DNA of 64,000 nt from Candidatus Bathyarchaeota archaeon (GCA_963739305.1 CAVTZU010000018.1:1-64000); one strand, 5' to 3'. Numbered from the stretch's first letter, positions 3,261 through 29,605 are shown. A program made the numbers and translations. The notes: generated by a model not told the origin, from the letters alone.

Positions 3261-3347
3261 CTACACACTACCTCGGGCATTTCTTTCTAACGCGTGCGCT
3301 TGCATTCCAACCTAAAGGATTGATGAAGGAGAAAAAACGCTCTCAGT

Positions 3348-4064
3348 TCACGAAAGTCGGTTATCAAGTGCATATCGTCTGTGTGATTCTAGGTTCCGAA
3401 GTGACTTACCAGAATTATCGCATCCAAAGATGTCTACGACGCCGTCACCATTCAAGTCAGCGTAGGGGTTCCAATTTGGAGCGCTCTGAGTACTGCCATA
3501 GGCGTTTGCTAGGATTAATGCATCATAAAGGTCCACGACACTGTCTCCATTGATGTCGCCTATCAGTCTTATATGAACACTCCCGTCCTCACTGTTTGAC
3601 TGCAAAGTCTGCCCTGAAGGGTCAGCAACTACAAGACTATCTATGTGCAAAGAGCTCTGACAGTATCTGTTGTACAGCTTGAAAGTCAAATCTATTATGG
3701 TGACTGGCGAGACAGTGCTCATAGGAGATCCGAAGGTCACGTTAGTGCTCATGAAACCGTTCCCTGACTGGAAGTACGTAGGACTAGGCAAGTTTGCATC
3801 TGGCAGAAAAGATACTCCTACTACTGCTATCTGTGTCCCGTTAAAAATCAGTGTCATTTGCACAGAACCGCAATTGCTTACGTTTTGAATAGTTATGTTT
3901 ATGTGAAATCTCATCCCTTGTGAAGGAGAATTGTTTACTGTGTTGGAGGGCTGGACACTTATCAGCGGCGTCATAGTGACAGAAGAGCTTCCATGAACCA
4001 CCAAGGCGCTCAGTGCCACAACAATGGCGCAAGTCCACAAGACAGCTTTTCGATTTTTCCTCAT
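3348..4064 (-). CDS. secreted cohesin + dockerin domain protein (probable 1-bp frameshift near the C-terminus; true stop about 3389)
   Basis: Signal peptide, cohesin-like beta domain, GDINGDSVVDLYD...ADLNGDGVVDIF dockerin repeats; shifted frame continues DAIILVSHFGT*. Confidence 0.8.
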   Translation of the reverse strand: MRKNRKAVLWTCAIVVALSALVVHGSSSVTMTPLISVQPSNTVNNSPSQGMRFHINITIQNVSNCGSVQMTLIFNGTQIAVVGVSFLPDANLPSPTYFQSGNGFMSTNVTFGSPMSTVSPVTIIDLTFKLYNRYCQSSLHIDSLVVADPSGQTLQSNSEDGSVHIRLIGDINGDSVVDLYDALILANAYGSTQSAPNWNPYADLNGDGVVDIFGCDNSGKSLRNLESHRRYALDNRLS

Positions 4065-4170
4065 CGTACCACCTCCTCTTTTCTCCCGAAGAACAAGAAC
4101 AAAATATGGTTTGAATGGACTTTTACGGTTTGTGGAAAAGAGTTCTAGATGCAGGTTAGCGCGCGCGCTT

Positions 4171-4188
4171 GGGGTAAAACTTTACCCC
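4171..4188. repeat. palindromic site GGGGTAAA-AC-TTTACCCC (copy 1)
   Basis: Perfect 8-bp inverted repeat around a central AC, preceded by AGCGCGCGCGCT at 4158-4169. Confidence 0.85.
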
Positions 4189-4203
4189 CAAACCCAAAAA
4201 AAG

Positions 4204-4692
4204 CTATGTCCTTTCAGGGCTTCTTCTCCGCCGAATAATTACAATGACAACTGCGATTATTACAACTATTATTGTGATTAGCAGAATAATCGTCAACGGA
4301 CTGAAAATCTGCACAAAAAATGAGTTTATTACTATCACTGGAAAATTGACCAAGGACGCATTAGCTGGTCCAGTAACAGCAAACTGATAGTTCACTTGCT
4401 CATAAACACCGAACACGTTTGGTGCAATGACATCATAGTTAATTGAACCGTACGGAGGAACATCTCTACGCTCACTCTGTCCCTGCATCTGCACCTGAAT
4501 AGGAAAGGAGTTGTTGTTGAAGATCCAAAAACGAAAATATGCGCCTTCACTCACTATGTGCGCGCCTTCGACGTCGATTCCTTCCAGTGGAGGTCCAGAA
4601 GGGTCGCATCGTCCGAGTGGTTGCGCCAGAATGATAAATGACAACAAACAAGAGAACGTCAACAAAGCGACTATGAATAGACTAACTCTCAA
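4204..4692 (-). CDS. hypothetical exported, C-terminally anchored protein
   Basis: Signal peptide and C-terminal TM followed by RRRR. Confidence 0.7.
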   Translation of the reverse strand: MRVSLFIVALLTFSCLLSFIILAQPLGRCDPSGPPLEGIDVEGAHIVSEGAYFRFWIFNNNSFPIQVQMQGQSERRDVPPYGSINYDVIAPNVFGVYEQVNYQFAVTGPANASLVNFPVIVINSFFVQIFSPLTIILLITIIVVIIAVVIVIIRRRRSPERT

Positions 4693-4737
4693 ATCGAACC
4701 CTCTCCAAATATATCAACACGTTTAGAGCATATTATT

Positions 4738-4873
4738 CTATGTTTTAGAACAGTTGGCAATTCTGGGAGTCCATGTTTGTCTTTCATTTCTCAGATATTG
4801 AGCAAACAGTAAAGCTTCTTCTGAAATCAGAGTTTCAATTTCTTGCTGAGAACTCATTCTCATTCTTCTAATT
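4738..4873 (-). pseudogene. cas1: solo cas1 3'-terminal remnant (copy 1)
   Basis: IRRMRMSSQQEIETLISEEALLFAQYLRNERQTWTPRI aligns with the C-terminus of the 9381-9791 remnant. Confidence 0.75.
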
Positions 4874-4952
4874 GTCTTGTCCCTCGCATGGCTGAATCCA
4901 TTTCTACACAGGCCCATTTTCCATAATCCACCCGTCAGCCCGCAGCAGCAGC

Positions 4953-4975
4953 GTAAAACTTTACCCCAACCAAAC
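4953..4975. repeat. palindromic site (copy 2) GTAAAACTTTACCCCAACCAAAC
   Basis: Same TAAA-AC-TTTA core as 4175. Confidence 0.8.
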
Positions 4976-5030
4976 AAGGTGCGGAAAAGTTATAGTTGTT
5001 CAATAATAAACTGCTACATTGGTGTCCAGA

Positions 5031-5588
5031 TTGCTCGAAGGGAAAAAGGTGAATCTGCGAATGATGGAAAAGGAAGATGTCAACTCCATAGTGGACATTT
5101 TCAGCAACATTCATTCAGAAGACTTTGACCCTATCTCGCTGATGACAAGGTCGGAGATGATGAAAAGATTCGAAAATCCTTCCCCTCTGGAAAGCCTGAC
5201 TCAGAATACGCTTCTTGTGGTGGAGAAGAAAGACAAAGTGAAAATTGGAATCGCCAGACATTTCATCGTGCAACCGCTCGACGCAATGGAAATTGGTTAC
5301 ATCATTGTTCCGTCGGAAAGAAAGAAAGGTAATGGAACCGAGACCGCTCAGATCATGGTCGACTACCTGTTTCTCTCTCGAAACATCGTACGAATACAAG
5401 CGACTGTCGAAACCCAAAACATGGCGTCACAAAGAGTGTTAGAGAAGGTAGGTTTCAGCAGGGAAGGAACCCTTCGAAGAGCCGGGTTCATGAGTGGAAA
5501 GTGGGTAGATGGCTATCTTTACAGCATTCTCAGAGAAGAATGGAAAGAACCCACGATACTAACACGAACAACCTGGGAAATGGAATAA
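5031..5588 (+). CDS. GNAT N-acetyltransferase (RimJ/RimL family)
   Basis: EIGY...ERKKGNGTE...NMASQRVLEKVGFSREG; paralog of 11550-12092; its stop TAA is the start of site copy 3 (TAAAACTTTAC, 5586-5596). Confidence 0.9.
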   Translation: MLEGKKVNLRMMEKEDVNSIVDIFSNIHSEDFDPISLMTRSEMMKRFENPSPLESLTQNTLLVVEKKDKVKIGIARHFIVQPLDAMEIGYIIVPSERKKGNGTETAQIMVDYLFLSRNIVRIQATVETQNMASQRVLEKVGFSREGTLRRAGFMSGKWVDGYLYSILREEWKEPTILTRTTWEME

Positions 5589-5699
5589 AACTTTACAGCC
5601 AAAATCCCAGCAACCGAAGAAGAAGCGAATCAACGAGCTGCAGGTCAGCGCCGAAGCCGGTGAAGGAGGCATATGACAAGGCGGGGTTTGAATGAATGG

Positions 5700-6398
5700 T
5701 TAAAGTATCGTCTCTGGGACTGGCTTTAAGTCGCAGTAGTAGAACCTGTTCTCCCTTCTGACTATGCTCCCCTTCTCAAACTGGATGTTTTTTCCAAATA
5801 TCGGCCCTGCGTATGTAAATGAGTGGAACTCCCCGTTTTCACCACAAGGGTCTACCGCAGACGGGAGTTCCGCCAGAAACCCGTCATCAAACTCCCTTCC
5901 AGCAAAACTCCTGCTTAAAACTTTTGAGTCGATGCAAACCACGATTGCCTTGAAGCCGGTCTTGATGAACTCGCGAGCCATGCTGCTCGTATCCTTTCTC
6001 TTCCAAATAGGGAATAATGCTTTCATTCCAATTCTCGCAAGCTTTTCTTCCCTGTACTTCCTCAGGTCTTCCAAGAAAATGTCCCCAAAAACTACTGCCG
6101 AAACCCCCTGCTTCTTCTGGCGCAGGAGGACTTCCCCCATCCTCTTTTCGTACTCCTCATTCGAGAAGTCTTTTGGAACGCTCACTTCTTCCAACGGCAA
6201 GTCTAGGGATGCGGCTTGTTTTTCGATCAAAGCCTTCCGGACGCCGTGCATGCTGACGCGATCATATTCTTCGGAAAAAGTCGTCAACAGTAAAACTACT
6301 TCAAAACCGTCAGCCTTTCGGAATTCGTGAAGGGCAAATGCGCTGTCCTTGCCCCCGCTCCAAGAAAAAATGACTTTTTGCGGCGCTGCAACAACCAT
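5700..6398 (-). CDS. PP-loop ATPase, diphthine-ammonia ligase/MJ0570-like family
   Basis: SWSGGKDS PP-loop, VFGDIFL, DPCGENGEFHSF. Confidence 0.88.
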   Translation of the reverse strand: MVVAAPQKVIFSWSGGKDSAFALHEFRKADGFEVVLLLTTFSEEYDRVSMHGVRKALIEKQAASLDLPLEEVSVPKDFSNEEYEKRMGEVLLRQKKQGVSAVVFGDIFLEDLRKYREEKLARIGMKALFPIWKRKDTSSMAREFIKTGFKAIVVCIDSKVLSRSFAGREFDDGFLAELPSAVDPCGENGEFHSFTYAGPIFGKNIQFEKGSIVRRENRFYYCDLKPVPETIL

Positions 6399-6516
6399 AC
6401 TATTAGTCTCTGCATGGAGTTATGGATTTTGGCTTTTATAAACACACTTTCGTGCCTAATTCTATAAGGAAAGGGTTTTCTGCAAGTTAAAGTGAATCTC
6501 CTTGGTGGCACTAGCA

Positions 6517-7215
6517 ATGAAGAAGCGGGTCATATTAGTTGGTATAGTTCTTGTGGCATTTGGTGTCATCACGTACGCGATTTTTTCATCAATCATTTTT
6601 TCGCAAACAATAGCTGTGAACGAGTCATTTACAGTGTTGGCCGGTTCCAACGTTCCCAGTTCTTTTCATCTTCCTAATAATGCAGATGTCTCTGGAACAA
6701 TAAATCAAGTTACAGGTCAAACAACGAATGACATAGACTTCTACGTATTTGACAGAGCAAACTATCAAGTTTGGGCTAATGGCGGGCAGAGTAGTGTCTG
6801 GTACATCAAGATTTACAGAGCAACGAGTGGTGCGACATTCAACTTCAGAACAGCCAAGGATGACGACTATTATTTTGTATTTGACAATCCTGGGGTTTTG
6901 TTCAATGGTGAAAGAGCAATCGTTTGGTCTGCTTCATATGAATATAAACCCTATGGACCGTTTGCCTTACCCATTCTTATTTCATTTGTCGCCGTAGGAG
7001 CAATTCTTGTAGCAGGCACAAGTATTTTGGAACTTAAGCACAGAATGGAAAAACTTCGCACTTGCCCAAGATGTGGTCGAAGGATTCCTATTGAGAAAAC
7101 GATATGCCCGCATTGTGGCTTTGACATCGAGAAATCTGTCCAATGCAAATACTGTCACACTTTCTACGATAGTTCTATGCTGAAGTGTCCAAACTGTGGA
7201 GCGCAAAATAAGTAA
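6517..7215 (+). CDS. membrane protein with extracellular beta domain and double zinc ribbon
   Basis: Two TMs, YYFVFDN motif, four CxxC pairs at the C-terminus. Confidence 0.8.
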   Translation: MKKRVILVGIVLVAFGVITYAIFSSIIFSQTIAVNESFTVLAGSNVPSSFHLPNNADVSGTINQVTGQTTNDIDFYVFDRANYQVWANGGQSSVWYIKIYRATSGATFNFRTAKDDDYYFVFDNPGVLFNGERAIVWSASYEYKPYGPFALPILISFVAVGAILVAGTSILELKHRMEKLRTCPRCGRRIPIEKTICPHCGFDIEKSVQCKYCHTFYDSSMLKCPNCGAQNK

Positions 7216-7426
7216 GCGTGCGCGCAACGCAACTTCTCCAAAGTTGTAGATTATGTTTGCGCAGTAGCGAGCGCGCGAGCAAGAACAAGACGTATAGCGA
7301 AAGAAGAGGACAGAAGATACGTTAAAAAACCCGTCCAAACAGAATATTATGATCATTGGGTGACACGTTGCGCCAAAATCCAGACTGAGCAATTTTCTCG
7401 CAAAAGCTCATCGCGTCCTAAAAGGC

Positions 7427-8002
7427 GTGTATAACGCACTGTACGGCTTTGTCCTGCACATTTTCAAAAGCATCAACCGAAGAATCAATCCGAGATTCCC
7501 AGTTTACCGTATGCATGAAGAAACAACTGAACACGTACGACACGCCGTCTACGTATTCATCTGGCTAATCCTACCATCGAGCATAATCTACCTGTTAGGA
7601 CTCCAATTAGCCTTCGGCGAAAACGCATGGGGCTCAATGCTCTGGGGAATAGCGGTCTACTTCTACAGCAACTTCCTACCGGACTTACCCTCAATCAACC
7701 GAAAACAAAAGCTCAAACCCGGATCCACCGACCTTGCGTGGTATAAGAAATACGCACTGCTCCTCTTCGCACCTGTGCTTGTCTGGCTTCTATTCTCCGA
7801 AATACGGTTGAACTGGAGAACTGTTGAAACATACCACAACTTCACATCACTTGCTATCTACGGCATTTTTCTTTTCACGATAGGCTTCTTCGGATTCGCC
7901 GGCTACCCTTTCATACCACGAGATCTCCTCAAGGTCCTATTTTTCGCGTCTGCAGGAATCGCAGGGTTTCTGACCCATTTGAAGGTCGACCAGATCTGGT
8001 GA
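7427..8002 (+). CDS. membrane protein, putative metal-binding hydrolase
   Basis: HVRH, LPDL, YHNF, THLKVD motifs among TMs. Confidence 0.6.
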   Translation: MYNALYGFVLHIFKSINRRINPRFPVYRMHEETTEHVRHAVYVFIWLILPSSIIYLLGLQLAFGENAWGSMLWGIAVYFYSNFLPDLPSINRKQKLKPGSTDLAWYKKYALLLFAPVLVWLLFSEIRLNWRTVETYHNFTSLAIYGIFLFTIGFFGFAGYPFIPRDLLKVLFFASAGIAGFLTHLKVDQIW

Positions 8003-8072
8003 CGACGCGTTCTCACACAAAATATATCCTTTAAGCCAAGCCATATACTCCGCCAAAAGTCGTGTCTTACCC

Positions 8073-9380
8073 GTGTTTGATCCAGTGACCTTGGCTCTTA
8101 TCATCGGCGGCGCAATAATAGTAATAGGTTTTCTTAGTAACTACCTTCTCGAACGCACGGGCTTACCAGACATGTTGTTCCTGGTGGTCCTAGGTATACT
8201 CGTTGGACCAGTAACGGGACTGATAGATGCGACTACCGTTATGGGTTTTGCTCCCTACTTAGCTGGTCTAGCATTGATTTTTATTTTGTTTGATGGGGGA
8301 ATGACCATGAACATCTACCACGTCTTCTCCGAAAGCCCAAGGGCAATAATCCTCGCAGCACTAGGATTCACGATCAGCGCTGTCGTCGCCGGTTTCCTGA
8401 TTTATTTGCTAGTGATCCCAACTTTCTCGCCTCTGTACTCTGCACTTTTCGGAACGATTGTCGGAGGAAGCAGCAGCATCATTGTCATGTCACTCGCCTC
8501 ACGAATCAAGCTCAGCGAAAAAGGTTCAACGGTCCTCCGTCTCGAATCAGCCATCAACGACATCCTATGCATTGTACTCTCCCTCGTCATCATCGAAATA
8601 ATAGTACTCGGAGGAACCGTCGACGTACCGACCATCGCTAGGTCATTAGCAAGCAGGTTCTCCATCGGAGCCATGCTCGGAATAATCATCGGCATCGGCT
8701 GGCTTAGCATTCTGAAACGAATCGCGAAGGCATCTTACTCCTACATGCTTACCCTCGGCATTGCACTACTTGCCTACTCACTCTCAGAAACGCTGGGCGG
8801 AAGTGGAGCGCTCTGTTCACTACTTTTCGGCATTATGCTCGGCAACGAAAAAGAAATCTTCGGAATACTCAAGATGAAAAAGCCGCAGGATCAGGCTGTC
8901 GACCCTGGACTAAAACGGTTCGAATCAGAAATAGCCTTCCTCCTAAGAGCCTTCTTCTTTGTCTACATAGGTTTGATCGTCACGATGCCCAGTCTCACTA
9001 CCGTCGTTGTCGGGGTAGTGCTGGCCCTAGCCCTGCTCTTGATCAGATTCGGAGTCGTAAACCTGGCCACGATAAAGAGCAAACTGGCGCCAGAAAGAGG
9101 AATCATGAGCGTCTTACTTACGAGAGGCCTAGCTTCGGCCGTGCTGGCCACACTCACACTCCAGTACGCAGATCAAGTCAAATATCCAGAAATAGGCCTA
9201 GTTTTCCAAAAGCTTTCACCGCTCTACGTCAACATAACGGTCGTCGTGATACTGGCAACAGCATTAATTGCGACAGTAGGAATTCCACTTCTGAGGTGGA
9301 GAAACAATCACAACAAGGCGAACAATCAGGCAACTGAACAAACACCATCTCAAACGAAGAGAAACAAAGGTGAGTCCTAG
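8073..9380 (+). CDS. cation:proton antiporter (CPA1/NhaP-like)
   Basis: 12-13 TMs; LFDGG, LESAIND, TRGLASAVLA motifs. Confidence 0.92.
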   Translation: MFDPVTLALIIGGAIIVIGFLSNYLLERTGLPDMLFLVVLGILVGPVTGLIDATTVMGFAPYLAGLALIFILFDGGMTMNIYHVFSESPRAIILAALGFTISAVVAGFLIYLLVIPTFSPLYSALFGTIVGGSSSIIVMSLASRIKLSEKGSTVLRLESAINDILCIVLSLVIIEIIVLGGTVDVPTIARSLASRFSIGAMLGIIIGIGWLSILKRIAKASYSYMLTLGIALLAYSLSETLGGSGALCSLLFGIMLGNEKEIFGILKMKKPQDQAVDPGLKRFESEIAFLLRAFFFVYIGLIVTMPSLTTVVVGVVLALALLLIRFGVVNLATIKSKLAPERGIMSVLLTRGLASAVLATLTLQYADQVKYPEIGLVFQKLSPLYVNITVVVILATALIATVGIPLLRWRNNHNKANNQATEQTPSQTKRNKGES

Positions 9381-9791
9381 CAACTAATCAAAGCAAAACT
9401 ACAACCTTATCTTGGTTTTCTCCACGGTATGGCCAAAGGAAAGCCCAGTTTGATCTGTGACTTCATGGAATTGTATCGTTATCTAGTTGATGATTTTGTT
9501 ATTCAGTATTGCAGAAAACTGAAGAGGAAAGATTTCACTGTGAAATCAAAAGACTCTTCGACAAAACGGAAGGGTAAGAGGGAGTATCTGAACGATTCTG
9601 AGACGCACGATTTTGTCAGGGCTCTGAATCAGTACTTCCAAACCAAAATCGGGATGCCGAGAGTTAGAATGGGTGAACGACAAGAGATTGAAACGCTAAT
9701 CAATGAAGAGGCTTTGCTGTTTGCAGCATATTTGAGGAATGAAAAGCAAACATGGGCTCCTAGAATCACCATCCCATCCGTTTCTGATTAG
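9381..9791 (+). pseudogene. cas1: solo cas1 C-terminal remnant (copy 2)
   Basis: In-frame LIKAKLQPYLGFLHGMAKGKPSLICDFMELYR contains the Cas1 GFLH...SLxxD.ME..R catalytic segment; N-terminal part of the gene absent. Confidence 0.85.
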
Positions 9792-9845
9792 GAGCGCGCG
9801 CTTGCTATTTTCTACTTCGAAAATTTCTTCAAGAGAAAAAAAGGG

Positions 9846-11183
9846 TTATGGGTAGTGTTGGTTGTAGTGGCTTGCCAACAGTATTGCGTCGTAGATGTCG
9901 ACGATGCTGTCTCCGTTTATGTCTGCGTTGGGGTTCCAGTTTGCTTTTCCCGGCGTAGAATCGAAAGCACCTGCCAGCAATAATGCATCATAGATGTCAA
10001 CTACCCTGTCGCCGTTGACATCGCCAGGCAGCCCGCGGGCGCTGTACAGGTAGCCAACGTAGATCGGATCGTTTTGAATTTGCATTCCGTCCCAGACTGG
10101 AAAACAAATCCTGTATATCAACGAAGATGCGTTGTAATCTAATGTTATATCAGGCCATGAACCGCCGAAGAGGTCGTTAAGGTTCAGGTAATCTCTGAAA
10201 AACATTGTCTGCCATACAACTGGGCCGTAAATCTCAGTCGGAATACTAGAAAGGGCTGCAGCTTCGGCTTTTGCCGGGTGAGTTTCATTGTTTTCGTTTC
10301 GGCTTAGAGTGTAATTGCTGCGGAGAACAAAATCGTACGCTTGTGTCTCGCCCACGGCGATCTGGGCAGTGTCAGCCTCCACGGCTGAATCGTTCGCGCT
10401 TGTCGAGTTGTAAAGTTGACCGTTCACGTAGGTTGAGTATGGTTCCGACGTATAGGTTGACGTTGGGTAGAGCAAAGCCAGGCTCAGGCCGTCTAATGAG
10501 AACTGTGAGGAGTCCAATACGGTTATGTTAGCAACTTCTCCGATGTCGAAGTTTGTTTTCAGGTTTGAGACGTTGCCGTTGAGGCTGAAATCGTAGCTTA
10601 CGGTCAGATGGTCCAGTATCAATTTGGCTGTAACGCCGATGGGAACCGTTGCGTTCTGGAGGTATGCGTAGACGTTTACGTAGGTGAAACCCCACTGGTA
10701 GTGCGGAACGTCGTCGTCCATCGTCTTCTGTATTGGGATTATGCTGTAGCTGTCGCTCATGTTTATGTACATGCAATACAGGATTTCGCTGTCTCCAGAA
10801 GTGAAGTTGGCCTGCGGAATGCCATCGCCGTTTTGGTCTCTGTAGACCTCCATCTTGTCCAATGCGCTTACCACAAAAACCTCCGTACCATCAGACAATA
10901 GTAAGTGCTGCCCCACAAGATTGGCGATCGGCGTAGGGTAGGGGTAGTCGGAGTTAGTGTACAGCACGTAGTTGATGATCTGAGTGCCGGAAACGTTAAT
11001 CCAATCATACCAAATGAGGCAAGGCGAATCTGGGATGGCAATGGTACCATTTGCATATTCCATATTATCAACAGGCAAAGTTGAGGACGCATCTGCAAAG
11101 TTAGGCATACGAAACTGTAGGAACGGTGTGAAACACAAAGTGACTAACAACACTCCGAGCATGACTAACATGAAAAGCTTCAT
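9846..11183 (-). CDS. secreted protein with C-terminal dockerin
   Basis: Signal peptide; GDVNGDRVVDIYD...ADINGDSIVDIYD. Confidence 0.85.
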   Translation of the reverse strand: MKLFMLVMLGVLLVTLCFTPFLQFRMPNFADASSTLPVDNMEYANGTIAIPDSPCLIWYDWINVSGTQIINYVLYTNSDYPYPTPIANLVGQHLLLSDGTEVFVVSALDKMEVYRDQNGDGIPQANFTSGDSEILYCMYINMSDSYSIIPIQKTMDDDVPHYQWGFTYVNVYAYLQNATVPIGVTAKLILDHLTVSYDFSLNGNVSNLKTNFDIGEVANITVLDSSQFSLDGLSLALLYPTSTYTSEPYSTYVNGQLYNSTSANDSAVEADTAQIAVGETQAYDFVLRSNYTLSRNENNETHPAKAEAAALSSIPTEIYGPVVWQTMFFRDYLNLNDLFGGSWPDITLDYNASSLIYRICFPVWDGMQIQNDPIYVGYLYSARGLPGDVNGDRVVDIYDALLLAGAFDSTPGKANWNPNADINGDSIVDIYDAILLASHYNQHYP

Positions 11184-11512
11184 CTTTTCACTATCCCTCT
11201 CGCGGTTGTCTTATAGAGAAGATTTAATTATTAATACTAACCCTTGGTACACCACGTTCGAGAAACTGGTACGGTCAGCGTATTGACGTCAACCCTGGCG
11301 CCTTCGCCATATCACGACAAATCTGTTGTTCCACAGCTCAATCAACGTTTCGCCCTCGCGCCCGCTAGATTCTGATGGTACCTTTCTGTTCCATCTATGT
11401 TCATACCTGTATTCAGAACCAGGTATACAACCAATGGAAGCCTATTACTGGTCGTCCGTCGTGGTTGTCGTCGTTCGTGGTCTTTTAAGAAATCCGTCGT
11501 CGTCCGTCGTAT

Positions 11513-11547
11513 GGTTGGTTGGGTTTGGGGGCAAAGTTTTATCCAAC
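11513..11547. repeat. palindromic site (copy 4, reverse orientation) with GGTT-rich flank
   Basis: GGTTGGTTGGGTTTGGGGGCAAAGTTTTATCCAAC, immediately after the stop of the GNAT gene. Confidence 0.75.
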
Positions 11548-11549
11548 AG

Positions 11550-12092
11550 CTATCTTGAAGCAGTTTTTGTCAGTATTTTTGGTTCTTTCCATTCTTCTCT
11601 CAGGATACTGTAGATATAGGAATCTACCCATTCTCCTCTCATGAAAAAGCTTTTACGAAGTGTTCCTTCCTTCTTAAACCCAACTTTCTCCAAGAGTTTG
11701 TAAGAAGCCACATTTCTTGGGTCAGTTTGAGCTTGAATACGTTTTGTGTCTTTTGAGAGAAACAAGTAATCCACCATTAACTGCGTAGCTTCAGTGCCGT
11801 AGCCTTTTCCCCTCTCACTTGGCACTAAACTATAGCCTATTTCCAGTTGCTTGCCCGCAACATGCAGGACATAAAAATGACCTATGAAACCAATCTTGCT
11901 TCCGTCCTTTTTCTCTATAATGAATGACTTCTCTTCATGAGGGCCCTCAAACATCTTTTCTGCTTCTGTTCTGGACACCTGATGTAGAGGATTGTATTCA
12001 CCAAAGACCTCAGGCTTGTTGAACCATTCTGCAATTAGTGGCAAATCCTCTTTCTCCATAATCCTCAAATTCACATTTTTACCTTCAAGCAA
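11550..12092 (-). CDS. GNAT N-acetyltransferase (RimJ/RimL family)
   Basis: EIGYSLVPSERGKGYGTE...NVASYKLLEKVGF; YSILREEWKEP shared with the 5031 paralog. Confidence 0.92.
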   Translation of the reverse strand: MLEGKNVNLRIMEKEDLPLIAEWFNKPEVFGEYNPLHQVSRTEAEKMFEGPHEEKSFIIEKKDGSKIGFIGHFYVLHVAGKQLEIGYSLVPSERGKGYGTEATQLMVDYLFLSKDTKRIQAQTDPRNVASYKLLEKVGFKKEGTLRKSFFMRGEWVDSYIYSILREEWKEPKILTKTASR

Positions 12093-12129
12093 GTTAACTC
12101 ACCAACCCAACATTTCAAGTCGATTCGGC

Positions 12130-12215
12130 TATAACTTTTCCGCAAAACCAAAAACCGGGTTAAAAGGAGGGAGAGTTATGTCGAAAGCGTAGATCAAAAA
12201 AACGCTGGAATCAGT
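12130..12215. repeat. about 85-bp intergenic repeat, copy 1 (TATAACTTTTCCGCAAAACC...ATGTCGAAAGCGTA...AAAAACGC)
   Basis: Aligns with 12776-12855. Confidence 0.75.
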
Positions 12216-12271
12216 TGTCGTTCACAAAAGACAAGAAAAGAAAGTGGCGACATGATGTGTTTTTGTTGTTC

Positions 12272-12727
12272 TTAACTCTTCTTTAGCTTCCTAAGCATTG
12301 AACCAGCATAGAGCCCTATGAAACTAACCACCAAACCAATGATAACGAGCATAGACCCCATAAGTGCCGAATAAGCGGACCAATCATAATCTGTCCACCC
12401 ACTCGTATTGAACGTGCTATTCATAGAGTCCCTGAGCCAAGGGGTTGCAAGGGGATTGGCGAACCAAATCGAGAAGAATATCAACAATGTAAAGGCTGAC
12501 AGAACAACAATAACTCCAGTTGCTCTAATTCTTGACTCCTCCTGAATCTTCAAGGCAAACACGTAGCCGACAACCAATGAAGCCACCAGAAACGCAATAA
12601 TAAAAGCAAGGTTGTCACTCATCTGGTTAGAATTGAGTGGAGCAAATGCAACCATCAAGAAAGCATCAAGGATTAAACCCACCAAAACCAAAGAAACCGT
12701 AGCTATAATCACGTTACCAAATTTCAA
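12272..12727 (-). CDS. hypothetical 4-TM membrane protein
   Basis: Hydrophobic helices; GGAGGTGA RBS upstream. Confidence 0.8.
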   Translation of the reverse strand: MKFGNVIIATVSLVLVGLILDAFLMVAFAPLNSNQMSDNLAFIIAFLVASLVVGYVFALKIQEESRIRATGVIVVLSAFTLLIFFSIWFANPLATPWLRDSMNSTFNTSGWTDYDWSAYSALMGSMLVIIGLVVSFIGLYAGSMLRKLKKS

Positions 12728-12775
12728 ACAATCACCTCCTTCGAATCAAATAATCACGTGTGTTCATGGTTCAGT

Positions 12776-12855
12776 TATAACTTTTCCGCAAAACCTAGAA
12801 CTAGCTCATAAGGACTGATATGTCGAAAGCGTAAAACAGAAAAACGCCAGAACCC
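12776..12855. repeat. about 85-bp intergenic repeat, copy 2
   Basis: TTATAACTTTTCCGCAAAACC-TAGAACTAGCTCATAAGGACTG-ATATGTCGAAAGCGTA. Confidence 0.75.
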
Positions 12856-12992
12856 ACGGGTCAAACGGGCTTAAGAACCATGTGTCCAGACTGTCCAACA
12901 GGAAAATACACTTTCCAAACTACATCTTGGAGCGATTTGCAAGTTAAAATCGAGTTAATAAATGGGCTCGTCAGAATAGTCAATGGACATTC

Positions 12993-13820
12993 ATGACGAA
13001 TCTAATCTCAGTGTCTAGTGCGCCCATTGCTGGGTTTGAGAACAAAAAATACTACGACCTTATCGGCACATTTGACGTGATGAAAAAGGTCTTCAGCGAA
13101 TCGGTTGTTGATGGTTTTGAGTTGCAACTTGAGCCAGAGTGGGACCGTGAAAATGCACCCTTAACCGATGGTGATTTTGCTGATTGGACTAGGACTCCAA
13201 AATACACAACTGAAGAAGTTGTAGAACTAATCAAAAGTCAGCATTTGCCAATTCTGTCTGTTCATGCAAGCAGGGACGTTGGAAACTATCTTTGCTCTGA
13301 TAAGGAACGAGATTGGCAGAAAGGAAAACATGTCATTTATGATTCATTACTGATTGCTGAAAACTCGGGAGCGGAGATTTGTGTTTTTCACATTTGGGAT
13401 ACTTGGAAAACCAGTTTCGACCTACAAAAAGTTGAGAGTATGCTTCTGGAAGTGGCGGACCAATTCCCAAAAGTGAAGGCATCAGTTGAAAACATTCCAA
13501 CGCATTTAGAAGGTTATACTCCTTTTGGGCTCGTCAAATCATTTGAATACGTGACTATGGATTTGAGATGGGCAGCGATGTATAAGGAACTTGACGCTTT
13601 CGAGTCAATAATCAACGGTATTGTAAATGTTCATCTGCGAGGGAGTCTAAAAGAGAGTAGATGGGTCCTAGAGCGTTCAGACTTTGACTTCTATGAAACC
13701 TTGAACAAAATAAGAAAGGAATGGGGATACTCGGGCTTGCTCACAGTCGAGCCTGAAGGTAGAAGAGAGGGGTCATCGTTTGAAAATTTCCTAGAAGCGA
13801 TGCGCACCTTGAAGACATAG
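12993..13820 (+). CDS. sugar phosphate isomerase/AP endonuclease 2 family TIM barrel
   Basis: SVH, VFH, SVENIP, TMDL, NVHLRG, TVEPE metal-ligand pattern. Confidence 0.75.
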   Translation: MTNLISVSSAPIAGFENKKYYDLIGTFDVMKKVFSESVVDGFELQLEPEWDRENAPLTDGDFADWTRTPKYTTEEVVELIKSQHLPILSVHASRDVGNYLCSDKERDWQKGKHVIYDSLLIAENSGAEICVFHIWDTWKTSFDLQKVESMLLEVADQFPKVKASVENIPTHLEGYTPFGLVKSFEYVTMDLRWAAMYKELDAFESIINGIVNVHLRGSLKESRWVLERSDFDFYETLNKIRKEWGYSGLLTVEPEGRREGSSFENFLEAMRTLKT

Positions 13821-14010
13821 ATTCCTATTTGAGTCCAGCTTTAACATTTCCGCAACAAAACTGTATACTCGATTCCGATACTACCTATATACCTACCCTA
13901 TTATGGTCTTGATTATACTATACCCCTCTTCCATGATAACAGACAAGACAGTGTATCCTGAACCGTGTATACTGCACTGACAATGACTGCCTTTTTCCAC
14001 GGCAGGGCAT

Positions 14011-14073
14011 CGTCGTCAGGGTTGGTTGGTTGGGGTAAAGTTTTATCCCAACCCAACCCCAACAACAACGACG
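14011..14073. repeat. palindromic site (copy 5) inside an extended imperfect inverted repeat
   Basis: CGTCGTCAGGGTTGGTTGGTTGGGGTAAA-GT-TTTATCCCAACCCAACCCCAACAACAACGACG. Confidence 0.85.
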
Positions 14074-14125
14074 GAAAACATTTATCTCTTCTGAAAACCA
14101 TCCACTGCTGGATGCGTGAAGTTGA

Positions 14126-14828
14126 ATGGGCTTGAAGGAAGAGGTACAAGAAATGGCAACACACCTAGGAGCTGACATTTTTGGAGTTGCTTCCGCTGAT
14201 CATTTGAGTGATGCTCCATCGGGGCATCGAACCTAAGGATGTCCTGCCAAATGCGAAGTCTGTTATTGTCATTGGGATGAAGATGCTCGACGCTCAGACG
14301 GACATCCTACCTGTCGATGGAGAGCATTTTGCAGCGTCTCCACGACAGGAAATGTTCCGAGGGCACAATACCTTCATTTCGCAGGACCTTGACAGGATAG
14401 GATATTCCATTGCAAGGTTTCTTGAGAAGAAAGGTTTCAAAGCCTATCATCAGATGGCTTCAACGGGAGGAACGGATACACGTTATCTTATGGGCTTGTT
14501 GTCGCTAAAACACATGGCTGTTCAGGCTGGTCTCGGGGTTCTTGGCTATAACAGTCTGCTCATAACGCAAGAGTTCGGGCCAAGATTACGATTGGCAGCT
14601 ATAGTGACGAACGCAGAAATGAAACCTGACACGCCTATAAACAAGAATTTCTGTAAAACCTGCCAGAACCCATGCATATCCTTGTGCCCAGCGAAGGCGC
14701 TAAAGAAGCCAAGTCGCGAATCCCACTACGAACTCAACAAGTTTGCTTGTTCTCAATACCTAAGCACTCGACCAACATGCAGCATATGCCTAAAGGTGTG
14801 TCCCGTAGGAAGCCAACGCATAAAGTGA
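14126..14828 (+). CDS. epoxyqueuosine reductase (QueG)-like 2x[4Fe-4S] protein, 1-bp frameshift near 14230
   Basis: MGLKEEVQEMATHLGADIFGVAS...APSGHR/PKDVLPNAKSVIV; AGLGVLGYNSLL...FGPRLRL; CxxCxxxCxxxCP and CxxCxxxCP. Confidence 0.8.
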
Positions 14829-14869
14829 GCTAAGAACTAGCACGCGCTGAGAACGCACATAAACTTGTG

Positions 14870-15263
14870 TTAGCTGGGCAGATTATCAATTCTTGGTTTC
14901 CATGACTGCCTCTCGTTCCTTAGAAACTTACTAATAAAAAAGCCTCTTCATTGATTAACGTTCAAGCTCTTGTTGTTCACCCATTCTTACTCTTGGAATT
15001 CTGATTTTGCTCTGGAAGTACGGATTCAAAGCCTTGACAAAATCGTGCGTCTGAGAATCGTTCGGATATTCTCTCTAACCCTTTCGCCTAGTTGAAAAGT
15101 CTTCTGATTTCATTGTGAAGTCTTTTCTGTTCAGTTTTCTGCAATACTGAATAACGAAGTCATCAACTCAAATAACGATAAATTCCATGAAATCACAGAT
15201 CAAACTAGGCTTTCCTTTTGCGATGCTGTGCAAGAATCCAAGATAAGGTTCAAGCTTTGCTCT
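14870..15263 (-). pseudogene. cas1: solo cas1 C-terminal remnant (copy 3, decayed)
   Basis: Reverse strand reads RAKLEPYLGFLHSIAKGKPSLICDFMEFYR...KDFTMKSEDFSTRRKG*REY...IPRVRMGEQQE with indels and a stop; colinear with 9381-9791; absent from the ORF track. Confidence 0.85.
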
Positions 15264-15420
15264 CTACTTCATATTGAACCTAGTGACTCTTGGGTTGTTC
15301 GGAATCTACTGGATTTACGTCTTGCTGAAGGACCCGAATGAACACTTTAGATACCACGTACAGATAGAAGATCAGCTCTTGACCACTTTAGAAACAGGTG
15401 TTACCTAAGATCTAAGTATT

Positions 15421-15458
15421 GCGCGCGCGCTATGCTAAAGTTTTATCGCAAATCCAAA
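15421..15458. repeat. GC palindrome + degenerate site (copy 6)
   Basis: GCGCGCGCGCTATGCTAAA-GT-TTTATCGCAAATCCAAA mirrors the 4159-4200 arrangement. Confidence 0.65.
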
Positions 15459-15753
15459 TCTACTTAACGCGACTTTTCTAACCTTCTTTTGAAGATTTTG
15501 ACTCTTCTCTTCTTAGTGAGCGTTTGTTCTGATCTTAGAACAACCTGTTCAAACACAGGAATAGCAGACAGCTCAAGAGACCCAAAAGAACTCTTGTCGA
15601 CATCATCGTGGGCAGCTTGGGTAACCTTGTTCTGTTTCCTGCTGCCACCTCCATTCCGCAATTGACCAGTTGTTTTGCTCACATCTAGATCCACGGATTC
15701 GAGCAGCACTGAAGCACGAATATCCTTCTGTCGCACTTGATTAATGTGCAACT

Positions 15754-15912
15754 TCAACATCCAATCGTGCAAAAAACTACGCCAAGGACTAACCCAAGAA
15801 CCAAGTGAACCCCCAACTGAGGCGCTGTCTGAGAAAAAAAGGCCGGGGGGTAGGGTGTTTTAGACCTGAAAACACTCAAAATCCATGTTGACCAGTCCTT
15901 CTCTCGACCATC
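15754..15912. repeat. conserved dispersed element, copy A
   Basis: GAAAAAAAGRCCGGGGGGTAGGGTGTTTTAGAC-N10-TCAAAAYCCATGTTGA..AGTCC shared with 31140-31342. Confidence 0.85.
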
Positions 15913-16145
15913 ACACACCTGCAAAAACGTGATAGCCGTCTTTCTGGAACATCTTTCCACAAATGATATCTAAACATTCAAACAACAATAGTACTTGGGA
16001 GAAGGGAAAGTTGTCGCAGAAACAACTAACTAACCAGCCTTTTCTGTCGTCATACTCATCTTCTTCACGTAACCACCCTTCCTACGCATCGTGCCCTTCT
16101 CGAACCGTTAGGTTTTCAACACTGCAAAAAAGGAGGCGATAAGAC

Positions 16146-17153
16146 ATGAATAAAAGAAACAAAATCATCCTCGCCATCGCCCTCGTATGCATCTTCACAA
16201 CCATAATCGTGATGACCAGAATCGGCCAAGGCCAACAACTAACCCCCACATTGTACGTTGACCCGCCACAGACGATATTCAACAGTCTCGTCGTGGGACA
16301 ACGCTTCAACATCAACATCGATGTCCTCAACGTAAGCGACCTCAAAACCTACGAATTTACGCTCAGCTTCAACCCCAACATGCTCACCGTCGTCAGCGAA
16401 TCCTTCCTGCCTGAAGCAAACCTGCCCACTCCAAACTGGCAAATCAACGGGTACGCAGGAACCTTCTGGACCAACGTAACCTACAACACCCCACTCAACA
16501 GCGTGCCACCCGTCACGATCGCAACAATCACCTTCAAAATCTCCAACTACGGAACAAGCCCGCTCACCTTCACAAACGACAAACTCGGCAACACCACAGG
16601 CCTACTCATGCCCCACGAAACAGTCGGCGGAAGCGTATCCGTCCTGAACCACGACGTAGCCATAACCAGCATAACCGCTTCAACAAACGAAACCTATGAT
16701 GGACGAATCGTCAACGTAACAACAACCGCACAAAACCTCGGGTTGGCAACTGAAAACTTCACCGTCAACATCTACGCAGACACCAACCTCATCGGAACCA
16801 CAAGCGTGTTTAACCTACTGCCTAACCAAACAACAATCATCGAAACGTCATGGAACACCAGCGGCTACGCAAACATGACAGCATACACATTAAGCGCCCA
16901 AGCAACCCCCGTCCCATACGAAACCAACCTCGCCAACAACGCCCTCACAGACGGAACCGTAAAAATCAAAATAATAGGCGACGTCAACGGAGACGGAACC
17001 GTCAGCATACTCGACCTACAAGCATGGGACGCAGCCTACGGAAGCAGTCAAGGAATGCCAAACTGGAATCCTCAAGCAGACCTCAACAACGACGGAACAG
17101 TCGACAAAGCAGACGGAATGCTGATCATACTGAACTACGGAAACCACCTATAA
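16146..17153 (+). CDS. secreted cohesin-CARDB-dockerin protein
   Basis: Signal peptide; cohesin-like domain (FLPEANLPTP, cf. FLPDANLPSP in the 3348 gene); HDVAITSIT CARDB; GDVNGDGTV...ADLNNDGTVD. Confidence 0.85.
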   Translation: MNKRNKIILAIALVCIFTTIIVMTRIGQGQQLTPTLYVDPPQTIFNSLVVGQRFNINIDVLNVSDLKTYEFTLSFNPNMLTVVSESFLPEANLPTPNWQINGYAGTFWTNVTYNTPLNSVPPVTIATITFKISNYGTSPLTFTNDKLGNTTGLLMPHETVGGSVSVLNHDVAITSITASTNETYDGRIVNVTTTAQNLGLATENFTVNIYADTNLIGTTSVFNLLPNQTTIIETSWNTSGYANMTAYTLSAQATPVPYETNLANNALTDGTVKIKIIGDVNGDGTVSILDLQAWDAAYGSSQGMPNWNPQADLNNDGTVDKADGMLIILNYGNHL

Positions 17154-17238
17154 CCCCCCATTTCTCTTTTTTCAAAACTCTTTTTCCCCAAACGCCCGCA
17201 TATATATTAACCAACAACAGAGTAATCTAACCCCCACA

Positions 17239-17317
17239 GGGCCCGTGGTCTAGTCTGGATTATGACACTGGCCTGCGAAGCCGGAAATCCTGGGTTCAAA
17301 TCCCAGCGGGCCCGCCA
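17239..17317 (+). tRNA. tRNA-Arg(GCG)
   Basis: GGGCCCG acceptor stem; CTGGC-CTGCGAA-GCCGG anticodon arm; GGTTCAAATCC; encoded CCA. Confidence 0.95.
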
Positions 17318-17427: not shown

Positions 17428-18040
17428 ATGCAACCCGCAACGACTAACACACGAAAATTCGTCGCAGTCGACCCAAGCAAATGCACAGGCTGCGGCATAT
17501 GCGAATACGCGTGCACACAAGAAAAAAACGAGCACTGGGACCCCCTAAAATCAAGAATACGCGTCATCCGCCTCACGCCGATGCTCAACACCACAATGAC
17601 CTGCAGATTCTGCAAGAACGCTCCATGCGTCAAAGCCTGCTCTGAAAAAGCCCTAACCCAAACAGAAACAACCGGCCTCCTGACCATCAACGAGCGCAAA
17701 TGCAACGGCTGCGACTGGTGCATCCAAGCCTGCCCCTACGGCGGAATAACCCTTGACCCCGACAGACGCGTCGTCATAACCTGTGACCTATGCAACGGAG
17801 AACCAAAATGCATCGAATTCTGCCCAGAAGAAGCCCTAGAACTCGTTTCAGATGACGAAGCCGTCGAAAGAAAATGGATCACCGCCCTCGAAAAAATCCC
17901 CGCGCAAGCCGAAAAAATCACGAACGCCGTCAAAAAGAAAGAATGGACCAAGCATCATGTCAGAGGCAGAAAAAAGAGCGAAGAAAACCACTGAGAAGCT
18001 CGAAAACATAAGCAAAAGAAAACAAACAAAAGAGAAATGA
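17428..18040 (+). CDS. 4Fe-4S dicluster protein (probable frameshift near 17950; ORF track ends at 17994)
   Basis: Four CxxCxxxC-type motifs (CTGCGICEYAC, CRFCKNAPCVKAC, CNGCDWCIQACP, CDLCNGEPKCIEFCP). Confidence 0.85.
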
Positions 18041-29490: not shown

Positions 29491-29605
29491 TGGCGGGCCC
29501 GAGGGGATTTGAACCCCTGTTCTCCGGCTTTCTTCCACGTGTGGTGCCCGGAGGCTTGCGCATCTTTGAGATTCGACGCCTTTATCCAGACTGGGCTACG
29601 GGCCC
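29491..29605 (-). tRNA. tRNA-Arg(CCG) with two 18-nt introns (29556-29573 at position 29/30; 29530-29547 at 37/38)
   Basis: Removing both introns gives a 79-nt cloverleaf with TCGGC-CTCCGGA-GCCGG and CCA; both introns sit in BHB-like motifs. Confidence 0.9.

Follow-up and report, generated by a model that had tools for sequence, protein, structure and literature searches.

A genus-specific 18-base near-palindrome as a candidate junction of shuffled gene cassettes in peat-dwelling Bathyarchaeia

The first 64,000 nucleotides of the Candidatus Bathyarchaeota archaeon contig CAVTZU010000018.1 (assembly GCA_963739305.1) hold six short palindromic sites that all lie at gene boundaries, raising the question what an oriented, repeated sequence does between functionally unrelated genes. 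This stretch (C18:1-64000) is called the window here, and the 36-contig, 2.32-Mb archaeal assembly to which it belongs is called G000 (completeness 97.1%, stated contamination 7.8%). A sequence-only reading had taken the six sites for oriented recombination sites and had suggested serine-recombinase crossover sites or casposon terminal repeats as models. We followed the motif through G000 and through the congeners G001, G002, G005, G008 and G009, whose core genes are 72-84% identical to those of G000. The general idea of oriented recombination sites is supported by strain indels, by homology break-points and by a cassette that the motif bounds in three species. We propose, with moderate confidence, that the motif, termed site A, is a junction and preferred exchange point of gene-cassette shuffling in the flexible genome of the genus, with an integron-like outcome, although it is not an attC site.

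Five of the six cores are exact copies of the 10-mer TAAAACTTTA, located at 4175, 4954 and 5586 on the plus strand and at 14036 and 15436 on the minus strand, and the sixth, at 11532 on the minus strand, deviates by one mismatch. Thus, the positions given earlier, the split into three plus sites followed by three minus sites and the location of all six at gene boundaries were confirmed. The 10-mer alone is not significant, as it matches the window 10 times at ≤1 mismatch and 13 of 100 shuffles reach as many matches. Genome-wide, 41 exact 10-mers are found, mostly inside the longer arrangement (G/T-rich)GGGATAAAACTTTACCCC(A/C-rich), and scanning G000 with the 18-mer GGGATAAAACTTTACCCC at ≤3 mismatches yielded 51 matches in about 48 distinct places, 12 of these copies being perfect and 26 lying within one mismatch. 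The control, i.e. the genome reversed without complementing, gave no match, demonstrating that the extended motif is significant. The only further match in the window at ≤4 mismatches is a flank-less one at 17743, so that, for the window, no copy outside 4-16 kb needs to be added to the original set. Five of the six window sites are real. The site at 5582 (S3 in Table 1) is a doubtful member that may be a chance match, having three mismatches, no arms and an overlap with a stop codon; from base composition we estimate that about seven chance 10-mers are expected genome-wide.

The anatomy of site A was computed on 84 distinct contexts from G000 and other species. Both in the window and genome-wide, GGGRTAAA-AC-TTTACCCC forms inverted half-sites around an asymmetric 2-bp centre. 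The palindrome and its asymmetric centre, as first described, therefore stand, whereas two other elements of the early consensus do not: position 4 of the family is A instead of G (GGGA...CCCC), and the flanks are compositional arms with no fixed sequence. About 11 nt to the left of the core are almost purely G/T and about 11 nt to the right almost purely A/C, with flat composition beyond, and the arms are made of varying simple units such as TTTGGG, TTGG or TG. The motif is polar, its left half reading GGGA and its right half GGGG on the other strand, with AC in the centre. The letters of GGGATAAAACTTTACCCC fit an 8-2-8 layout and may equally be read as arm+GGGAT / AAAACTTT / ACCCC+arm, i.e. 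with an 8-bp asymmetric spacer. The complementarity of the arms corresponded to the shuffled expectation at 15 of 15 arm positions in the 84 contexts and was not improved by any register shift, and upon folding of the 60-nt context as single-stranded DNA one of the six window sites (S5, z -3.3) performed better than its shuffles. As the arms do not co-vary and a single window site folds above shuffles, site A has no conserved hairpin. Half-sites that carry an arm and lack the other half occur 18 times in G000 and 20 times in the reversed control, indicating that the motif is an integral unit and not a pair of abutted ends; an origin from abutted transposon ends was ruled out on the same counts.

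Site A is a genus-specific 18-base near-palindrome of peat-dwelling Bathyarchaeia. Of the 10 further genomes of the genus, 9 share the 18-mer with G000 at ≤1 mismatch, having 1-25 copies each. It was also detected in 2 of the family's 14 other genera and was absent from all 16 genomes taken from other families within the order (backwards control 0-1). An exact scan with the 17-mer across one genome per prokaryotic species returned at least 124 stretches; 69 of the 80 loci listed belong to metagenome-assembled genomes of Bathyarchaeia/Bathyarchaeota, and the remaining 11 are single matches in unrelated taxa (10 bacterial, one Methanocellales), which by our estimate is about chance level for that much DNA. 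In IMG/VR, 11 of 14 loci are true copies with G/T or A/C arms. The sequencing runs that share half or more of the window's sampled words are peat metagenomes. No description of the motif was found in the literature searched, including the accessible part of the Bathyarchaeia virome paper PMC10848311.

Site A sits between genes, in clusters and irrespective of gene orientation. With gene boundaries from a hexamer-trained gene caller 66 of 75 sites are intergenic, and their flanks show all four configurations at near-equal frequency (start/end 19, end/start 17, end/end 17, start/start 13). Motif polarity is thus independent of gene direction, which rules out a promoter or terminator of the ordinary kind. 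Gene starts lie at widely varying distances (~12-700 nt), and the sites do not keep a fixed distance to the promoters of a coherent regulon, a pattern that the sequence-only reading had named as the sign of a transcription factor operator. Another site lies ≤5 kb away for 26 of 42 sites, with gaps of 316-2964 bp, and adjacent sites share their polarity in 13 of 18 pairs. The flanking genes are functionally unrelated and encode GNAT acetyltransferases, methyltransferases, dockerin/cohesin proteins, response regulators, a TMEM175 channel, glyoxalase, ferredoxin-like proteins and radical-SAM enzymes, accompanied by many open reading frames (ORFs) without family; occasionally the neighbour is a core gene (EF-1alpha, eIF-1A, tRNA ligase). 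Two other ideas on placement and partnership were dropped. A replichore-polarised motif had been suggested by G001, a closed genome whose 13 sites form two blocks of polarity, but in G000 polarity switches within a few kb. A DUF559 nuclease gene is found beside the site at two loci, but of the 11 genomes of the genus just 1 has such genes.

Ends of indels and of homology coincide with site A within the assembly itself. Alternative strain haplotypes are kept as separate contigs in G000, with many contig ends overlapping at 95-99% identity, and contigs often end at the junction motif. Contig C30 corresponds to C8:11052-9042 joined directly to C8:6373-5437 (99.3-99.4% identity), and the letters shared at the joint are those of the motif only. 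Since C30 joins both flanks at the motif, one variant contains the segment C8:6374-9041 (2.67 kb, two genes, between direct sites) and the other lacks it. Similarly, C3 lacks C2:12160-12750, which contains one response-regulator gene, the crossover falling within the motif. It also lacks C2:10484-11677, a segment that has a degenerate copy of the motif at either end. Altogether, 9 of 53 non-self alignments in G000 at ≥88% identity end ≤35 bp from a site, the site windows making up an estimated ~0.25% of the genome and ~1.5% of the intergenic DNA. The inverted site pair at C10:113049/114214 was rejected as evidence since it lies in a 5.3-kb near-perfect palindrome and is uninformative on the motif. 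This palindrome (C10:111000-116500, arms 90-98% complementary, centre near C10:113645) may be a genuine inverted duplication or may have arisen as a fold-back artefact during assembly.

Site A also bounds one and the same cassette in different contexts. The ferredoxin-like cassette (C8, ~13709-14724), 93% identical in G009 and 87% in G005, has a copy of the motif at either end in each of the three species (6 of 6 boundaries) and stands among other genes each time. The glyoxalase cassette is bounded by the motif in G000 and G009, but not in G005. The GNAT cassette of the window (Table 1) is 96% identical in G001 and 93% in G005, to be compared with the 72-84% of core genes, and the motif stands after the gene in G000, before the promoter in G005 and on neither side in G001. 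A TMEM175 cassette is 96% identical between species, and a 200-bp module beside the site shows 95-99% DNA identity in five species. This module contains a basic zinc-ribbon ORF of 37 amino acids (G000:C8:11130-11243; L158 6631-6744) with the pattern CxxCGK...YCSxxC, which we take to be TRASH/FCS-like; it starts 57 nt from the site, is 94-100% identical at the protein level in the five species and lies beside a site in every case. A 6.6-kb island that includes three sites adjoins EF-1alpha in G000; island and motif are both missing there in five congeners, and in another species a different small cassette plus the motif follow EF-1alpha. None of 55 distinct sites from other species has a G000 alignment running through it. 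For 9 of the 55 both flanks were found in G000, being non-adjacent in 9 of 9 (a count that has no matched control), and at none of 69 loci from other species are both flanks adjacent in G000, as they would be at an empty site.

The window provides a local view of such a mosaic. The genes of its flexible region (3.3-17.2 kb) have scattered, non-syntenic homologues in five congeners. S1 lies between the start of a dockerin gene (3348-4064, minus strand) and the end of an ORF (4204-4692, minus strand), and a paralogue of the dockerin gene region (C10:7430-8269, 90%) stops matching at 4149, beside the GC tract and S1. S2 is followed by a promoter GCGGAAAAGTTATAG (~4981-4995) that resembles a B recognition element (BRE) plus TATA box, and then by a GNAT gene (5019/5031-5588, plus strand). 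A non-coding module of ~170 bp (13860-14031) that adjoins S5 is 81% identical to a module beside a G001 site, and a 175-bp gene fragment (15252-15426), 94% identical to C28:34287-34461, ends beside S6. The Na+/H+ exchanger segment (7277-9384) is inverted relative to the tRNA-Arg/ABC genes as compared to G002 and G005, whose loci lack the site; this orientation would fit an inversion between the opposed sites S3 and S4, with break-points that are not mappable.

Table 1. Coordinates of site A copies and other features of the window; mismatches refer to the 18-mer.
Feature	Position	Strand	Description
S1	4171..4188	+	GGGGTAAAACTTTACCCC, 1 mismatch; A/C arm right, GCGCGCGCGC tract 4159-4168 left
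S2	4950..4967	+	AGCGTAAAACTTTACCCC, 3 mismatches, without left arm
S3	5582..5599	+	GGAATAAAACTTTACAGC, 3 mismatches, without arms; overlaps TAA stop of GNAT gene
S4	11528..11545	-	TGGATAAAACTTTGCCCC, 2 mismatches, with arms; 5 nt beyond stop of GNAT cassette gene
S5	14032..14049	-	perfect GGGATAAAACTTTACCCC, long G/T and A/C arms
S6	15432..15449	-	GCGATAAAACTTTAGCAT, 4 mismatches; composite with GCGCGCGCGC tract 15421-15430
GNAT cassette	11549..12155	-	gene 11550-12092 with own promoter ~12128-12150
Cas1-solo 3' fragment	9381..9791	+	residues ~215-344 of 347; abuts stop of Na+/H+ exchanger; GCGCGCGC tract follows
Cas1-solo fragment	14913-15266	-	contains stops
Cas1-solo fragment	4753-4875	-	
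Flexible region	3300..17238	.	holds all six sites; ends at tRNA-Arg 17239-17317

Several further features of this landscape were seen along the way. The GCGGAAAAGTTATAG promoter module recurs in the window at 12128-12150, 12773-12797, 13838-13860 and 4978-4996, in two cases preceded by a further conserved motif of ~30 nt (ATGTCGAAAGCGTA...). Tracts of (GC)4+ form a second intergenic punctuation motif, with 351 copies in 2.3 Mb, 298 of them intergenic; in the window they are found, e.g., at 9794-9801 and in the flanks of S1 and S6. They are often flanked by TA...TA and often stand beside the junction palindrome, and GCGCGCGC occurs 359 times in the whole genome as opposed to 5 times for GGCCGGCC. 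Many secreted proteins contain dockerin/cohesin domains, a cellulosome-like scaffold vocabulary in an archaeon, examples being window genes 3348-4064, 9846-11183 and 16146-17153 as well as genes on C2, C8 and C30, and several of these are cassette genes of variable regions. G000 has at least five TATA-binding protein (TBP) paralogues (C8:38068, C17:16072, C14:50137, C11:78528 and C15:100291, as matches of a congener's TBP gene), and one TBP copy of that congener directly follows a junction site. An Rfam scan of the window at gathering thresholds identified three tRNAs and nothing else; one of them (29494-29605, minus strand, 112 nt) is missed by ARAGORN and presumably bears an intron.

To account for the coincidence of cassette boundaries and rearrangement ends with site A, we suggest that the site lies between independently transcribed gene cassettes and that recombination between its copies would delete, insert, invert and reshuffle gene-sized segments. 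We infer that exchange at site A is catalysed. As G000 encodes tyrosine recombinases and no serine recombinase was found in it, the preferred enzyme class would be a tyrosine recombinase acting on 'G/T arm+GGGAT / AAAACTTT / ACCCC+A/C arm' with an asymmetric overlap of 8 bp. Sites of this class, such as loxP, FRT and dif, have a 13-8-13 or 11-6-11 layout, and recombination between direct copies leads to deletion, between inverted copies to inversion. The layout of site A would be compatible with such inverted arms around a polar, asymmetric spacer, and G000 has 15 Phage_integrase (tyrosine-recombinase) matches; unlike loxP, FRT and dif, however, site A fixes only the inner 5 bp of each arm and has no cognate enzyme linked to it. 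Around about 65 loci of other species, a tyrosine recombinase adjoins the site in 5 of 150 flanking ORFs scanned, in two cases with the site 60 nt past the stop codon.

Comparison with integrons helps to delimit the proposal. Cassette arrays and clusters of attC sites lacking an integrase (CALINs), including archaeal ones, are described in Ghaly et al. (2022; PMC9668308). The arrays found here are like integrons and CALINs in consisting of mostly single, unrelated accessory genes split by a repeated recombination-type site, in that cassettes recur elsewhere in other orders, and in that arrays often have no integrase nearby. The 15 matches in G000 are to the Phage_integrase family as such, and none of them adjoins an array there; of 18 adjacent site pairs, 13 have the same polarity. 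The architecture of the site itself differs. An attC site is 55-141 bp long and has conserved outer R''/R' boxes (RYYYAAC ... GTTRRRY) and a variable centre. In site A, by contrast, the centre is invariant and the outer parts are compositional; there is no GTTRRRY box, the sole GTT being followed by TTAT, and no paired stem. Also unlike integrons, the cassettes have promoters of their own and lie in either direction, sites of both polarities occur side by side, and site A also stands singly next to core genes.

A number of observations weigh against this proposal. Homology ends fall in intergenic DNA anyway, and against an intergenic null we estimate the enrichment at sites to be ~4-5 fold, i.e. 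weaker than genome-wide. Deletions between direct repeats of 17-24 bp can arise by slippage or homologous recombination with no enzyme needed. As a 4.2-kb segment with two dockerin genes that is absent from C3 has GCGCGCGC tracts, not the motif, at both ends, site A is possibly just the commonest intergenic repeat. Several junctions lack the motif: tandem GNAT cassettes of G001 abut exactly at the GCGGAAAAGTTATAG promoter module without it, and it is missing from the glyoxalase/TRAM junction in G005. Opposite polarity in 5 of 18 adjacent site pairs misfits simple one-way integration, and so does the flipped polarity of one site of the ferredoxin-like cassette in G005. The site-adjacent integrases are 24-35% identical to each other, one having no detectable similarity, and no integrase of G000 was found beside a site, with the regions downstream of six of them read. 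Alternative joints were sought in Logan contigs (contigs, not reads) of four peat/wetland runs, which are short and break at the repeats. The 15 joints listed, with 124 more beyond the list, include no inversion of 5596-11531, and all 15 have sides of 18-35 nt that fit repeat copies in other organisms, so that none is attributable to inversion or excision of the window locus; neither an excised circle nor an inversion appeared in the contigs, where no search was aimed at the circle junction.

Homologous recombination driven by RadA between repeats of 17-40 bp, without a dedicated enzyme, is a serious possibility. In such a version a break in the core followed by 5' resection would leave both 3' tails GT-rich, so that the arms might assist the reaction; RecA-family proteins prefer GT-rich DNA. 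The opposite extreme would be a separate kind of cassette-exchange system in Bathyarchaeia, which would parallel integrons in function and would have evolved independently of them. Here, a divergent tyrosine recombinase or a Cas1-solo protein without PolB would cut the AAAACTTT centre of double-stranded sites, the G/T arms would give GT-rich 3' tails, and promoter-bearing single-gene cassettes would be inserted, excised, inverted and traded between species and viruses. We regard this stronger version as possible but doubtful.

Among the explanations that do without cassette exchange as the function of the site, the binding site of a host DNA-binding protein, for example a dimeric transcription factor, an insulator or nucleoid protein or a roadblock terminator, fares best, although we consider it unlikely; recombination would then be a side effect of the repeats. 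Dimeric operators typically take the form of such an 8-2-8 near-palindrome, the core is strongly conserved even in genomes without a candidate dedicated enzyme, the (GC)4+ tracts suggest that the lineage punctuates intergenic DNA generally, and for about 8 of the 84 contexts a canonical GCGGAAAAGTTATAG promoter is found at a distance of 15-35 nt. A symmetric dimer, however, leaves the strictly kept polarity (GGGA versus GGGG, centre AC) unexplained, 17 of the 66 intergenic sites lie between convergent gene ends with no promoter, the flanking genes have no common function and start distances are broad, and site positions are not orthologous between species.

A selfish miniature palindrome that spreads into intergenic DNA, with cassette boundaries coinciding through intergenic targeting, has a lower probability in our judgement. 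It would resemble a miniature inverted-repeat transposable element or the repetitive extragenic palindromes (REP) and bacterial interspersed mosaic elements (BIME) that accompany RAYT transposases in enterobacteria and pseudomonads, where short, genus-specific, intergenic palindromes occur clustered, in tens to hundreds of copies, and mark places of rearrangement. Site A shares with these its shortness, palindromic form, intergenic and clustered location, genus specificity and number in the tens; the true armed copies at the 11 IMG/VR loci and a polarity that differs between species at a conserved cassette boundary, as expected of independent insertions, fit as well. Unlike REP/BIME genomes, though, G000 has no match to the Y1/RAYT transposase family PF01797, no compensating hairpin is present, and the arms, which neither co-vary nor pair, are compositional and not copies. 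Their repeat units vary while the G/T versus A/C composition is kept, pointing to selection at each site or a mutational process rather than copy-and-paste, and no filled/empty pair differing solely by the element was found.

The presence of Cas1-solo sequences next to several sites raised the possibility that site A is the target or terminal site of a Cas1-solo integrase, with gene-sized DNA being inserted at the palindrome under site duplication, as a casposase or Cas1-Cas2 does. The three Cas1 fragments of the window, lying 75 bp to 1.8 kb from a site, are 3' pieces of one Cas1-solo clade, two of them with stops, and nested 3' fragments of this clade are abundant in the genus (10 matches in G001 alone). 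A window fragment appears to retain the catalytic His and acidic pair, when set against the residues given in PMC4046053. G001 has a Cas1-solo pseudogene with a site immediately upstream. Full-length genes of the clade are found in G002, which has two, and in other genera at 42-57% identity, and one of the G002 genes (G002:C28, L184 9903-10943) lies between two inverted sites 9.3 kb apart. In this respect, site A recalls casposons, and inverted copies also flank 5.9 kb in the window; yet no duplication was observed, and copies of the motif are also found alone or arrayed in direct orientation.

Other observations make the Cas1-solo explanation very unlikely. G000 keeps its ~48 sites well without an intact Cas1, only 3' fragments being found there, and G008 and G009 likewise have fragments only. 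The motif is present in genera g2 and g4, in which no Cas1 was found, and, conversely, the 42-57% homologues of the clade belong to genera without the motif. Co-location may simply reflect shared flexible regions. PolB is part of all casposons according to the definition in Krupovic et al. (2014, PMC4046053). No match to Cas2 or PolB was present among 14 ORFs scanned around the full-length G002 gene, nor did any Pfam match of the 24 window ORFs scanned belong to a PolB family, so that, by the definition as given there, this is not a casposon. With an integral palindrome at about 48 scattered places instead of a pair of ends with target-site duplications, the casposon reading is not supported. 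A gene set resembling ubiquitin, E1, E2 and proteasome genes lies downstream of the G002 Cas1-solo gene.

That site A is a BRE/TATA-like promoter or an intrinsic terminator is highly improbable. ATAAAAC+TTTA resembles the first half of the BRE/TATA of G000 tRNA genes, and the reverse strand offers a T4 run. The second half of a TATA box would, however, be CCCC, and the tRNA promoters of G000 differ from the motif, having RAAAS + CTTAAAT upstream of the tRNAs. Besides, separate canonical promoters lie between site and genes, and the near-equal flank configurations include 13 divergent and 17 convergent ones with no fixed distance.

A serine-recombinase crossover site with the central AC as crossover dinucleotide, favoured early on, keeps its two 8-bp inverted half-sites around an asymmetric 2-bp centre and the rearrangement ends at the sites, but is close to refuted here, as the 97%-complete G000 has no match to the Resolvase domain PF00239 in a search that was positive in 12 of 14 control genomes; the letters of the site also fit the 8-bp-spacer reading.

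In sediments and peat, Bathyarchaeia rank with the most abundant archaea. They are known nearly exclusively from metagenome assemblies, and little has been established about the ways in which they acquire and lose accessory genes. Site A provides a handle for mapping their flexible genome. It explains why assemblies break at such places, helps to recognise cassettes in fragmented assemblies and allows fishing for the enzyme with a 40-bp oligonucleotide. If an enzyme acts on site A, cassette exchange would have been solved a second time, independently of integrons, and a new tool for site-specific recombination might be at hand.

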